Source: Escherichia coli
GTDB lineage: Bacteria > Pseudomonadota > Gammaproteobacteria > Enterobacterales > Enterobacteriaceae
DNA length: 64,000 nt
Strand: one strand, 5' to 3'
NCBI RefSeq assembly: GCF_044647545.1
Contig: NZ_CP172818.1
Part shown: positions 10,929 to 43,700 of the stretch, one piece after another
Position numbering within the stretch: the first letter of the stretch is position 1
Layout of the letters: every line of letters begins with the position of its first letter
The notes under the pieces: generated by a model
Database searches by the model: none
The model's input: only the letters and a program-made list of their open reading frames with translations
Told to the model about the DNA's origin: nothing
Program-made: the position numbers and the translations under genes

Positions 10929-11029
10929 ATGACCGGATAAAGAACTGGTTACGTCGCTCCTTCATCTTCTTTAACTCTTACAAAACCCAAAGAATTCTTC
11001 ACCTTTCATTTCCCTATTCTTTTTCTCCC

Positions 11030-11084
11030 AAAAAAAAAAAAAAAAAAAAAAAAAAAAAAAAAAAAAAAAAAAAAAAAAAAAAAA
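11030..11084. repeat. 55-nt homopolymeric A tract (anomalous)
   Basis: uninterrupted run of A read directly from the sequence, flanked by G-poor sequence. Confidence 0.95.
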
Positions 11085-11105
11085 GAAGAAAAAAATCAAA
11101 AAAAA

Positions 11106-11126
11106 ATCGCCTCTGAACGAGGCGAT
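11106..11126 (-). terminator. hairpin of the hemY rho-independent terminator
   Basis: tcgcctc-tgaac-gaggcga stem-loop 6 nt downstream of the hemY stop, followed on the minus strand by a U-run. Confidence 0.6.
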
Positions 11127-11131
11127 ATAGA

Positions 11132-12328
11132 TTACTGTGACGGGTTATTCTGTAAGGTCAGCATCAAACCGTCGCGGCGCATCGCTGCAGCTTCTTCTGG
11201 TTTGTGCAGTCTGTCCAGCGCGTCGGCAAGCCATGCGTAATCGTAGGCGTCCGGACGTTGTTTCAGCGCCGCGCGGAAGGCGAGCGATGCTTCCTGCCAT
11301 TCGCCGTGCTTCATCAGCGACTGACCCAGTGTGCTCCACAACAACGGGCGATCGCCCACGTTTTTGATCTGTTGGCGCAGCACTTTTTCCAGCTGTTCCG
11401 GGTTATTGGTTTTCAGACGCGGGATCGGCAGCAGCAGGCGATCGTCATACTGGCGTTTCAGGCCGTCGATGATAATTTGCTGGGCGGTGTCATGGTCATC
11501 ACACTCAATAAGGTGTTCCGCCATTGCCACCTGTAACGCCACCTGATGACGCGTTTTCCGGCTTTGGTTTTTCCACCAGTTACGCAAACCTTCGCTACCG
11601 TTATCGGCACGCGCCTGATCCATCAGGCCAATCCATGCCTGTTGTTCCAGCATTGCACGATGTTCTTCATCGCCAACGTGGGCTTTCGCCATTGATGGGA
11701 TGATATCCAGCAGCGAACTCCATGCACCAGTGCGGATATACGCCTGTTCCGCCAGACGTAATACTTCCGGATGGCGTGGCGTAACTTCCAGCAGCTTATC
11801 AACGCCGTGACGTGCTGCATGGTTTTCATTACGGGCCAGTTGCAGACGTACACGGGTGATTTCTACCGGAATTGTGCCGTTGCCGGCCAGCTCCGCTGCG
11901 CGTTCCAGATGTTGGTTGGCGCGTGCTTCATCACCGCGTTGTTGCGCGGCTTCGGCAGCCAGCAGATAGTTCACCACCGGTTGTTCAGCGTGATCGGCAT
12001 TTTTCGCCATCAGCTTTTCAACTTGCTGATAATCGCCTTCCGCTAGTTTCAGCAGCGCCTGTTCGGTCTGCTTACGGGCACGGCGACGCTTACGTCCGAC
12101 AAACCACCCACGGGTGTGTGCGCCTGTGCGGAAGATCCGCCGCAGTAGCCACTCAATGGCAAACAGCACTACCATCGCCAGAATCAAAATAATCGCCAGG
12201 CCAGTGACGCTGGTTTCGATATTGTAGTTGTCGGTCTGAATCAATACGTACCCCTGATGACCGGCAATCATCGGGCCAACCACGATCCCCGCAATCAGCA
12301 AAACAAAGAGCAATAACACTTTTAGCAT
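11132..12328 (-). CDS. hemY: HemY protein (TPR-like, membrane anchored), heme biosynthesis operon
   Basis: 398-aa ORF with N-terminal TM segment; hemCDXY operon context. Confidence 0.9.
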   Translation of the reverse strand: MLKVLLLFVLLIAGIVVGPMIAGHQGYVLIQTDNYNIETSVTGLAIILILAMVVLFAIEWLLRRIFRTGAHTRGWFVGRKRRRARKQTEQALLKLAEGDYQQVEKLMAKNADHAEQPVVNYLLAAEAAQQRGDEARANQHLERAAELAGNGTIPVEITRVRLQLARNENHAARHGVDKLLEVTPRHPEVLRLAEQAYIRTGAWSSLLDIIPSMAKAHVGDEEHRAMLEQQAWIGLMDQARADNGSEGLRNWWKNQSRKTRHQVALQVAMAEHLIECDDHDTAQQIIIDGLKRQYDDRLLLPIPRLKTNNPEQLEKVLRQQIKNVGDRPLLWSTLGQSLMKHGEWQEASLAFRAALKQRPDAYDYAWLADALDRLHKPEEAAAMRRDGLMLTLQNNPSQ

Positions 12329-12330
12329 GG

Positions 12331-13542
12331 TTATTCTCCTTGCGGCGCGGCTGCCGGAGTATCAGCTTGCGGTGCAGGTGCAGGTGCAGGTGCAGGTGCA
12401 GGTGCAGGTGCAGGTTTAGCTTCCGTTGTCCCTGCTGCCGGTTGTGCCAGCAGGTTACGCACGCGGGTCTGCATCAATTTTTCCAGCATCGCCTGGCTTT
12501 GCAGGGTTTCCGGGAGATCCATCGAGATATTTTGCTGGCTTAACTGGTCCACCTCGTCGAGGAACGCTTTGGTGGTGGCATCATCAGTATCGTAGTAAGC
12601 ACGTACCCAAGTGGAGACATTCTCCAGCGCCTGGCGATAAGTCTCTTCCTGATGACGCGGTACAGCTTGTGCAGCGACCAGCAGGCGAGAGCGAATATTT
12701 TCGCGCAGATAGATATCCTGATTTGGCGCTAACAGCGGTACGGCGGTGTCATCACGACGGCGAATCGTAATGAAGTTGTCCATAAAGTTCTGCCAGCTTT
12801 TTTGCAGATTGATACGCCATTCGCTGATGGAACTGGAAAGCTCTTCACCGTCGGAATCCATCGGCGAACCATCGCTGTCATTATCAGCCAGACGCAGGTT
12901 ATCTACCTGATTTGAAAGCTGATTAAGCTTAAGGATAATGCCGTCATAATCCACCTGCGATACCGCAGAAAGGCTGGCGATATCATCGGTAATTGCCCGG
13001 CGAACGGTAATCAGACTCGGGTCATTCATATCCGCCAGGCTGGCGTCTGCACTTTTCAGCAACGCTGCAGCGGTCGTGACGTCCTGATCGCTCCACAGCT
13101 TCCGTCCGGCGAGTTTCACCAGGAAATCAGCCTGAGCCAGCAGCCAGGTTTTAGCATCGCTGCCGGAAATAGTCGCGACCTTTTGTTGGACTTCATCCAG
13201 CTGTTTTGCCAGCGTTTCTTGCTGACGATTCGCCTGCTCAAGCTGTACAGCTTGTTGCTTGATAATGCCTTCCAGCTCAGCTTTTTGGCTCTCCTGGGCT
13301 TTTTGCAGTGCCGTCAGCTGATTAGCCAGGGCATCGCTGGTGGCAGTCTGATTGACGGCCTGTTGTTTACCCCAGCCATACAAACCGACGCCCGCCGCCA
13401 GAGCAATAGCGATAGCCACCGCGCTGAGAATCAATGCGGTATTGTTCTTACTCTTTTTTTCTGTTGCGACAGGTTGTGACGTGGTGTCCACGGCCTCCCT
13501 GGTCTCTTCAACCACGGCGGAGGTTTTTTCTTGTTCCGTCAT
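12331..13542 (-). CDS. hemX: HemX membrane protein with C-terminal Pro-Ala repeat
   Basis: 403-aa ORF; coiled-coil-rich sequence; ends with [19 protein letters not shown] encoded by the hexanucleotide repeat at 12371..12415. Confidence 0.9.
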
Positions 13543-41411: not shown

Positions 41412-41531
41412 GGTATTCTCCGTACCCTTATAAAAATGTTGCGCAATGTTAACTATAGTCAGCATGCAACAAATCACATTGCCTGAATCGGCTCATCTTT
41501 TATGCAGTCCTGCAGAATGAAGAGTGATTTA

Positions 41532-41547
41532 TGTGATTTGCATCACT
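41532..41547 (+). promoter_or_regulatory. CRP binding site in the udp promoter
   Basis: tgtga-tttgca-tcact fits TGTGA-N6-TCACA. Confidence 0.6.
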
Positions 41548-41583
41548 TTTGGCGGGTAAATTTATGCAACGCATTTTCGTCAT

Positions 41584-41599
41584 GGTGATGAGTATCACG
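41584..41599 (+). promoter_or_regulatory. second CRP-like site in the udp promoter
   Basis: ggtga-tgagta-tcacg. Confidence 0.5.
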
Positions 41600-41672
41600 A
41601 AAAAATGTTAAACCCTTCGGTAAAGTGTCTTTTTGCTTCTTCTGACTAAACCGATTCACAGAGGAGTTGTAT

Positions 41673-42515
41673 ATGTCCAAGTCTGATGTTTTTCATCTCG
41701 GCCTCACTAAAAACGATTTACAAGGGGCTACGCTTGCCATCGTCCCTGGCGACCCGGATCGTGTGGAAAAGATCGCCGCGCTGATGGATAAGCCGGTTAA
41801 GCTGGCATCTCATCGCGAATTCACCACCTGGCGTGCAGAGCTGGATGGTAAACCTGTTATCGTCTGCTCTACCGGTATCGGCGGCCCGTCTACCTCTATT
41901 GCTGTTGAAGAGCTGGCACAGCTGGGCATTCGCACCTTCCTGCGTATCGGTACAACGGGCGCTATTCAGCCGCATATTAATGTGGGTGATGTCCTGGTTA
42001 CCACGGCGTCTGTTCGTCTGGACGGCGCGAGCCTGCACTTCGCACCGCTGGAATTCCCGGCTGTCGCTGATTTCGAATGTACGACTGCGCTGGTTGAAGC
42101 GGCGAAGTCAATTGGTGCCACCACTCACGTTGGTGTGACGGCTTCTTCTGATACCTTCTACCCGGGTCAGGAACGTTACGATACTTACTCTGGTCGCGTA
42201 GTTCGTCACTTTAAAGGTTCTATGGAAGAGTGGCAGGCGATGGGCGTAATGAACTATGAAATGGAATCTGCAACCCTGCTGACCATGTGTGCAAGTCAGG
42301 GCCTGCGTGCCGGTATGGTAGCGGGGGTTATCGTTAACCGCACCCAGCAAGAGATCCCGAATGCTGAGACGATGAAACAAACCGAAAGCCATGCGGTGAA
42401 AATCGTGGTGGAAGCGGCGCGTCGTCTGCTGAAATTCTCTTTCTCCTGTCAGCCCTGGGTGAAGGCATCCCATCTTCATCTCCAGGATGCATTCACCGAA
42501 ATCGAATCGGGATAA
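41673..42515 (+). CDS. udp: uridine phosphorylase with a 27-codon C-terminal extension in this sequence
   Basis: [40 protein letters not shown]...; codons 1-253 end in ...VEAARRLL as recalled for K-12 Udp, but codon 254 is AAA and the frame continues to 42515. Confidence 0.85.
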
Positions 42516-43700
42516 AACATCAAATAACTCCCCTCATAAATCTGGAAATCTAATTTTTTTTCAACTACTGCCCATTTCGCATTTGCCGGTAACCTATCAC
42601 ATGCATACCCTGATGGATCGCGTTTTCAGGCCGGTTCCATCGACACACCTGAATTTTTTCTCTTCGCCACGCATCACTTCGGCATTTCACCTTCTTTAAT
42701 CACCCAGCATGATTCAGCATTTCTCTCTGTGATAACACGTCAACTGCTTCGCCAGACCCTCGAATGACCGCAAGGTAAATAACTGCTGTTGCCACCCTTC
42801 GCACTCCGACATCCGCAAGCCATACCGCATGGGTTTTCGACCATCCCGCAGACACGTAAAACGTATCTGGAAACTCCTCACGTTTCTCCTGGAGGTAATT
42901 TCATGATCCCCAGAATTCACGTTTTTCTTTGATCTTGATTCGCCAAAACGCCATGCCCGAACGATGACTTCCCCATCCAGGATTAAATCTAAGTTCTGCA
43001 TTATCTTTCCTTTAATCATTTTATTTATCTTTCGGACGTCTTACCCCACCCATTCACGGATATCTCTTCTGCACAGGATTTGACGAAGTGCCACTTCAAC
43101 CCCACGACATATACTGTACTCGACAGAAATACCGCCACAATTTCATCCCGCTTGTAAACCCTCAACGCAACGGATATCGGCTCTTTCCTTCCAATCAAAA
43201 CAAAACCACTCCAAACGACGCATGTTCTAATAAAGCGCCCATTTTGTTTCATCACCACAGGCTTTACCGCCACTTTCTTCTTTCGTTAGATCAATCCTCC
43301 GATCCGTGATTCCATCATCGATCCTCTGACGCATTTCCACCCCCTGACTTTGATCTTCTCCAGATACAGCACTTCTCGCCTTCAACGATCCCCAGATGCA
43401 CGGTTCCAGTTAACCAACGTTCAAAACCGCAATTTTACACGAGTCTTTCCATCTCTCACTGAATCGATCATTTCACCCATTTACCCTCGTGACACGCAGT
43501 AACTTTTCCACAAACTGACTAAACATGTTTCTCCTCGTCCTGAACTCCCGATAATTTTAGTCACACGTTATAAACACATTAAGAACCGCCATCCACGTAA
43601 TAACGTTTCCGCCTCGTGTTGAAGAGGTTTCTCCCACTCACTTCTCTATGATATTCTGAATTTCCACATAATGACGTGGGGAAAAAGTGATATATCCCAC
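42516..43700. other. G-depleted (+ strand), ORF-free tract of about 1.2 kb between udp and rmuC
   Basis: about 13% G against about 30% C in sampled 60-nt lines; only short ORFs without recognisable protein features; right boundary approximate. Confidence 0.8.

Follow-up and report, generated by a model that had tools for sequence, protein, structure and literature searches.

What accounts for three G-poor tracts that lie between otherwise ordinary genes of an Escherichia coli chromosome? The tracts are found in a 64,000-nucleotide (nt) stretch of contig NZ_CP172818.1 (assembly GCF_044647545.1), which we call the window, at the glmZ-hemY, uvrD-yigE and udp-rmuC loci. We conclude that they are very probably artefacts of a reference-templated consensus, in which reads from an ST648-like E. 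coli were laid on a K-12-type template, and not biology. An earlier reading of the letters alone, made without database searches (the sequence-only reading), had called the tracts artefacts of a common technical origin on the strength of a signature that they share, and had regarded them as insertions without a natural counterpart.

The tract sequences were searched against a collection of 5,426 complete E. coli genomes and then aligned locally to the best relatives, which are ST648-type E. coli such as FDAARGOS_497 (NZ_CP033850.1) and IMT16316 (NZ_CP023815.1). MG1655, with a chromosome of 4.64 megabases (Mb), served as the K-12 genome for comparison. The alignments place the tracts as follows:

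10962..11097, no strand: tract 1 (glmZ-hemY), 136 nt in place of 571 nt of ST648-lineage sequence
24716..25652, no strand: tract 2 (uvrD-yigE), a noisy in-register copy of a SAM hydrolase/halogenase-family gene and of the spacer before yigE
~42436..43747, no strand: tract 3 (udp-rmuC), copied from the final ~1550 nt of the udp-rmuC island of ST648

These extents revise those of the sequence-only reading, which had placed tract 1 at 10966-11105, had started tract 2 at 24990 and had placed tract 3 at 42516-43700. Read directly, the interval 10966-11105 is C/T-rich and ends in a run of 55 A residues (A55), 24990-25652 consists of C, A and T homopolymers strung together, and 42516-43700 is complex sequence that is poor in G.

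All three tracts are depleted of G on the same (+) strand. We scored the G fraction on this strand in the intervals 10962-11097, 24716-25652 and 42451-43746 and obtained values of 0.022, 0.162 and 0.142 for tracts 1, 2 and 3, respectively, against a background of 0.273. The corresponding z values of -5.8, -4.9 and -6.4 agree with the same-strand G-poverty that had been reported, and equally long background windows that are as poor in G number 0 of 61091 for tract 1, 57 of 57887 for tract 2 and 0 of 56451 for tract 3. At the native loci of ST648-type relatives the + strand contains 22-27% G, and thus the depletion in the tracts is not inherited. The description of two tracts as homopolymer-dominated applies to tracts 1 and 2, which between them contain every run of at least 8 nt in the window (A55, T20, A13, two C11 and others) except a single T8 in tract 3. 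The reported lack of coding capacity also held, as no intact homologous open reading frame (ORF) was found in any of the three tracts. Comparison of the tracts with one another, a check that the sequence-only reading had proposed, revealed nothing in common except homopolymer runs.

A distinct natural homologue was found for each tract, which overturns the view that they are insertions without a natural counterpart and is the very finding that the sequence-only reading had named as telling against its own interpretation. Judged from the alignments, the tracts are degraded images of three ordinary accessory loci that are present intact in the closest ST648-type relatives and that K-12 is without. 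Each tract is collinear with one locus of FDAARGOS_497 and IMT16316 and has the same flanking genes, but compared with the native loci the copies in the window are 16-76% shorter or have ~30% less base identity, and none retains an ORF. The intergenic position assigned to the tracts is correct relative to K-12 and incorrect relative to the closest natural genomes, where genes occupy these sites.

No tract is foreign or synthetic DNA, an insertion, a non-coding RNA or a mobile element. A non-coding RNA gene was ruled out by an Rfam gathering scan of the whole window, in which no tract matched a curated family and glmZ, EsrE, StyR-44, tRNAs and rRNAs were found elsewhere. As for a mobile element or other foreign insertion, the tracts contain no intact ORFs, and each matches only a resident chromosomal locus at one place per genome. 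Phage or plasmid origin was set aside because E. coli chromosomes already account for all three tracts. A naturally decayed pseudogene was rejected on the grounds that G makes up 84% of the deletions on one strand, that substitutions copy neighbouring bases, that homopolymers reach 55 nt and that genomes with intact genes match the flanks at 100% identity.

Tract 3 aligns along its full length to the end of the ST648 udp-rmuC island, and this part of the island, which adjoins rmuC, is present in 1457 of the complete genomes searched. Its content corresponds to a 2-dehydro-3-deoxygalactonokinase remnant at ~42445-43001 (native protein WP_001117529.1) and an IclR-family regulator at ~43021-43638 (native protein WP_000852398.1), both on the minus strand. 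On the + strand 224 of 434 G residues (52%) are missing, compared with 6 of 366 A, 16 of 420 C and 20 of 416 T residues (1.6-4.8%). G accounts for 224 of the 266 deletions, and there are 7 insertions and 19 substitutions. Losses differ widely by context, with G deleted at 16 of 16 AGT and 30 of 34 TGG sites, at 0 of 18 GGA sites and at 1 of 19 CGA sites. Sorted by the preceding base, loss amounts to 76% after A, 69% after T, 41% after C and 40% after G, and a G that precedes A is retained in 84% of cases. The losses are roughly even along the length of the tract, with almost no autocorrelation between successive G residues. We detected no significant dependence of G loss in tract 3 on codon position. 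Such a dependence would be expected if a predictive model had "guessed" coding sequence.

The left end of tract 3 runs into the adjacent gene:

41673..42515, + strand: udp with its stop codon lost, a 280-amino-acid (aa) fusion instead of a 254-aa protein

The udp frame passes from the ST648 sequence "...CTGCTGAAAT" through ~15 nt that match the K-12 3' untranslated region (UTR) into tract 3. The sequence-only reading had suspected damage to udp and possibly to yigE among the flanking genes. The damage to udp is real and consists in the loss of the stop codon at this hybrid junction, whereas yigE is intact. The point at which tract 3 is truncated falls where the K-12 udp 3' UTR (TTCTCTTCTCCTGTC) and the interior of the island (GCTCTTGTGCTGCTGTC) happen to be similar, and this similarity would let an aligner re-anchor a read there. 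No database record was found for the udp fusion protein or for the product of a tract-3 ORF.

In tract 2 the native coding sequence of the SAM hydrolase/halogenase-family gene (WP_000751631.1) maps to 24683-25580 on the minus strand, and the alignment stays in register with 851 versus 863 nt. The first G deletion occurs at 24716, which is ~270 nt earlier than the start given by the sequence-only reading. Error is 2-8% at 24700-25000, where it is mostly G loss, then rises to 18-43%, and is zero from 25653. Of the 192 substituted bases, 122 are the same as the window base before them and 118 the same as the one after, with C gaining and G and T losing. On this profile tract 2 is, to all appearance, a local smear of the true sequence. 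A left-justified pile-up of drifting reads was considered as its sole cause and rejected, since register is held within 12 nt over 850 nt and identity regains ~80% locally at positions far from the anchor. The gene that adjoins tract 2 on the right is as follows:

25655..26419, minus strand: yigE, intact, 254 aa

A look-up of the YigE protein returned natural ST648-type contexts only.

Tract 1 begins directly downstream of an intact small RNA gene, which is itself outside the artefact:

10722..10928, + strand: glmZ small RNA (RF00083, 218 bits)

The first ~40 nt of tract 1 equal the native sequence minus its G, and are followed by low-complexity sequence and then by A55; the right end rejoins the native sequence at an A-run ahead of the hemY terminator. 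The flanks at 10932-10961 and 11098-11132 are faithful ST648 sequence that is absent from K-12. In the native genomes the 571 nt at this site, which lie between the glmZ terminator and hemY, hold a minus-strand gene for a 196-aa hypothetical protein (WP_001260227.1). We note that this gene, at 2428-3018 in the retrieved ST648 stretch, is an uncharacterised accessory gene placed right after the glmZ terminator, and that no Pfam or NCBIfam family was found for its product.

Alignment of the window to MG1655, another of the proposed checks, defined the inserted intervals as 10932-11132, 24674-25654 and 42451-43744. These are the only segments of more than 200 nt that are absent from K-12, and they are the three corrupted tracts. 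K-12 homology stops at 24673 and restarts at 25655 around tract 2, and stops at 42450 and restarts at 43745 around tract 3. Errors begin 30-45 nt inside the left K-12-homology boundary and end at the right boundary. Where the window exceeds K-12 by insertions of up to 30 nt, it reproduces the ST648 sequence without error. Because only the non-K-12 segments longer than 200 nt are corrupted and the short insertions are perfect, sequence quality follows the presence of a K-12 counterpart. The earlier claim that a shared signature points to a common technical origin and that the tracts are artefactual is upheld. One short insertion is a 30-nt expansion of a tandem CAGGTG x5 repeat in hemX (12375-12404), which is identical in ST648 and is therefore a natural repeat-number polymorphism.

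Apart from the tracts, the window matches ST648-type genomes at 99.99-100% identity (alignment to FDAARGOS_497), and it is at the same time fully collinear with K-12 MG1655. The sequence-only reading had noted this collinearity and had taken it as a normal background. The observation is correct, but the collinearity is itself a symptom, as near-identical natural genomes carry four extra segments and an IS4 copy. Absent from the window are the IS4 copy (in yigE), a DUF943/YPO3983 island after corA, an Rpn-family gene, a metabolic island of 8.5 kilobases (kb) between metE and ysgA, and ~4 kb of the udp-rmuC island, which is a tripartite-tricarboxylate-transporter/aldolase island. The missing ST648-only segments are thus four in number and 1-8.5 kb in size, in addition to the IS4 copy. 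A search with a 16.7-kb query returned 83 records with at least 99% identity, and all of those listed align in 4-5 pieces across ~28-29 kb; the near-identical genomes listed therefore carry extra segments. The corresponding sites in the window are the following:

26084-26095, 27593-27739, 33733-33782, 40552-40603 and 42424-42450: sites of missing ST648 segments, each at a K-12-like junction
33733..33782, no strand: rhtC/rhtB "empty-site" junction, K-12/O157-like, where all near-identical natural genomes have the ~1-kb Rpn-family gene
40552..40603, no strand: metE/ysgA "empty-site" junction, a K-12-like terminator hairpin with several base errors, where ST648 has the 8.5-kb island

At the rhtC/rhtB junction two or three G-to-A changes set the window apart from natural empty sites, and overall the K-12-like junctions of the window carry 2-6 errors. 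The window contains no Ns. No exact match to the rhtC/rhtB or the metE/ysgA junction was found among the 5,426 complete genomes, the best full-length identities being 94.5% and 96.1%, respectively. A natural strain without the islands was ruled out because neither empty-site junction matches any of these genomes.

A second record displays the same hybrid organization. The YsgA protein encoded in the window is chimeric, with an ST648 body and a K-12-like C-terminus, and exactly this protein is on record in GenBank entry CP092815.1 (GCA_022531175.1). NZ_CP092815.1 and NZ_CP092816.1 lie outside the E. coli comparison collection. The chromosome of CP092815.1 is 4,670,349 nt long, which is near the 4.64 Mb of K-12, and the ST648-type relatives listed have ~4.9-5.3 Mb. 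Its positions 4038765-4047580 (8.8 kb) correspond to 36606-46676 of the window with 99.6-99.9% identity. In this stretch both the K-12 architecture and the lost udp stop codon are as in the window, and tract 3 is absent. At its metE/ysgA and udp/rmuC junctions CP092815.1 reproduces K-12 sequence exactly, on a background of ST648 single-nucleotide polymorphisms (SNPs), and it contains single Ns and short runs of Ns, genic and intergenic, wherever K-12 and ST648 differ by insertions or deletions. A consensus called against a K-12 template is the likely source of this pattern. Two unusual proteins of the window, CorA and YsgA, have consecutive RefSeq identifiers (WP_400165094.1 and WP_400165095.1). 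The record behind the window is probably a close relative of CP092815.1 that was produced along similar lines. A literature search found no mention of CP092815. Accessions adjacent to it belong to "complete" Klebsiella pneumoniae genomes that have ~5.7-Mb chromosomes with plasmid replicons inside and untypable multilocus sequence typing alleles (PMC12463934). These neighbouring records are compatible with a batch of template-based assemblies, although the connection is circumstantial.

Taken together, these findings suggest that the window as a whole is a pseudo-assembly on a K-12 template. We propose that reads alignable to the K-12 template would give a clean consensus with ST648 alleles, and that large strain-specific islands would produce split alignments and be lost. 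At insertions of medium size (0.2-1.5 kb), only insertion columns from a few, mutually ill-aligned reads would be available, and the caller would emit lossy, strand-biased output. Such output would take the form of dropped G, replacement by neighbouring bases, homopolymer runs and truncation wherever the strain has more than ~200 nt without template columns. As to platform and software, the data were probably a few noisy long reads called against a reference. We infer that the real strain carries the genes of the three loci and the missing islands intact.

The window resembles reference-guided consensus pseudo-assemblies in that K-12 architecture is combined with the SNPs of the strain, islands are missing and a hybrid junction destroys the udp stop codon; CP092815.1 shares the likeness through its K-12-sized chromosome, its Ns and its exact copies of the reference where ST648-type genomes lack the segment. 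Unlike such assemblies, the window renders insertions of 0.2-1.3 kb partly and in G-depleted form rather than simply dropping them, and its reference-only junctions are slightly mutated. Four points count against a templated consensus. First, we know of no standard error model that gives 52% strand-specific deletion of G with so few other errors. Second, the K-12-only junctions of the window are slightly mutated and are not exact K-12 sequence, and therefore a plain rule of keeping the reference where there is no coverage is insufficient; the pipeline did more than copy. Third, the ~15 nt that follow udp could alternatively be G-degraded island sequence and not the K-12 3' UTR. Fourth, the link between CP092815.1 and the window rests on shared chimeric sequence and not on metadata.

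Gap closure is the alternative that survives best, mainly for tract 2, though we consider it unlikely. Here contigs would have been ordered on a reference and the three gaps filled with raw, untrimmed, low-quality reads of one strand, either capillary reads with a weak G channel and poor resolution late in the run or single noisy long reads. Tract 2 indeed behaves as one left-to-right read, being clean at first, then showing G dropouts and then a neighbour-copying smear with its spacing kept, and the strand bias is the same in all three tracts. Dye-terminator chemistry has a "weak G after A" pattern that resembles the context effect of tract 3, where a preceding A or T goes with greater G loss (76%, 69%) than a preceding C or G (41%, 40%). 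However, the strong effect of the following base in the same tract (G before A kept in 84% of cases) is not expected of terminator chemistry, and the uniform error of tract 3 extends across ~1550 nt of template, more than a single capillary read can cover. The missing islands and the noisy K-12-like junctions are also left unexplained. The comparison with low-quality base-calling junk is similarly divided: strand- and base-specific errors, neighbour copying, long homopolymers and an error in tract 2 that rises from the left anchor are all shared with it, whereas the uniform profile of tract 3 over 1.5 kb, the few insertions and mismatches, and boundaries that fall at reference homology and not at read ends are not.

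We consider it highly improbable that a generative sequence model wrote the tracts or the whole window, or that a natural genome was corrupted on purpose. The collapse into homopolymers does resemble model output, as do the empty-site junctions, which are near misses without a match in any complete genome, and fidelity follows the frequency of a segment across E. coli genomes. Against this, lineage-specific ST648 alleles are reproduced at 100% identity over many kilobases, and the tracts hold register through heavy noise in the manner of a noisy read-out, unlike a free-running generator. Furthermore, the chimeric YsgA and the CorA Tyr-to-Asp variant (described below) are on record at NCBI, and the sibling GenBank record has the same hybrid junctions.

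We give hardly any credence to the idea that the tracts are three decayed pseudogene remnants produced by an unusual strand-specific mutation, combined with a precise loss of the extra ST648 segments. Each tract does sit at an accessory gene of the relatives, so that dispensable genes could conceivably have decayed there, and natural metagenome contigs contain the CorA Tyr-to-Asp variant of the window. Yet the flanks are 100% identical to relatives with intact genes and therefore allow no time for ~30% divergence inside the tracts. Runs such as A55, T20 and C11 and neighbour-copying substitutions are not an evolutionary pattern, and the damage ends exactly at K-12 homology boundaries. To our knowledge no mutational process removes half of the G residues from one strand, leaves A, C and T alone and shows no bias by codon phase or towards transitions. 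That the isolate really carries the tracts, through a strand-specific process that deletes or replaces G in new or dispensable DNA (e.g., a targeted DNA-editing or repair pathway) and with a genuine K-12-like architecture, has a negligible probability.

With the tracts understood as products of a K-12-templated consensus, nothing biologically new is encoded by them, and the value of the observation lies in curation. An apparently complete E. coli chromosome seems to be K-12-templated, with four missing segments in this window alone, three destroyed accessory genes, a false udp fusion and a damaged tRNA-Leu. Records of this kind can give false gene losses, pseudogenes and recombination signals in pangenome and antimicrobial resistance surveys, as well as false "novel" proteins, and new WP accessions have already been minted for chimeric products. 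Two cheap flags would identify similar records, namely strand-biased base dropout restricted to non-reference insertions and a reference-sized chromosome.

Several smaller anomalies were observed elsewhere in the window. In corA a patch of three SNPs at 27614-27619 matches exactly the copy of a corA fragment that lies downstream in ST648 genomes, and it changes the conserved motif YGMNF to DGMNF. The resulting Tyr-to-Asp protein is found in three unrelated metagenome contigs and as WP_400165094.1. We initially read this mosaic as a repeat collapse, but the identical protein in three unrelated metagenome contigs weakens that reading, and the patch may instead be a natural gene-conversion variant. 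In the 16S rRNA gene rrsA, GG is replaced by AA at 62105-62106 (AGTAGGTGGGGTAAAGG to AGTAGGTGAAGTAAAGG), a state that neither K-12 nor ST648 matches; the cause may be another minor error of the G-loss kind or a difference among rrn copies. At 53809, in the repeat-rich region between fre and fadA, the window lacks 3 nt (TAT) that ST648 has, and the same gap is present relative to K-12. Finally, the tRNA-Leu(CAG) gene leuT (6912-6997) has a run of seven C residues at 6984, in the T-arm/acceptor region, where K-12 and ST648 have eight. Its Rfam score is low (40.8 bits), and the shortened run in this essential gene is probably a miscounted homopolymer.

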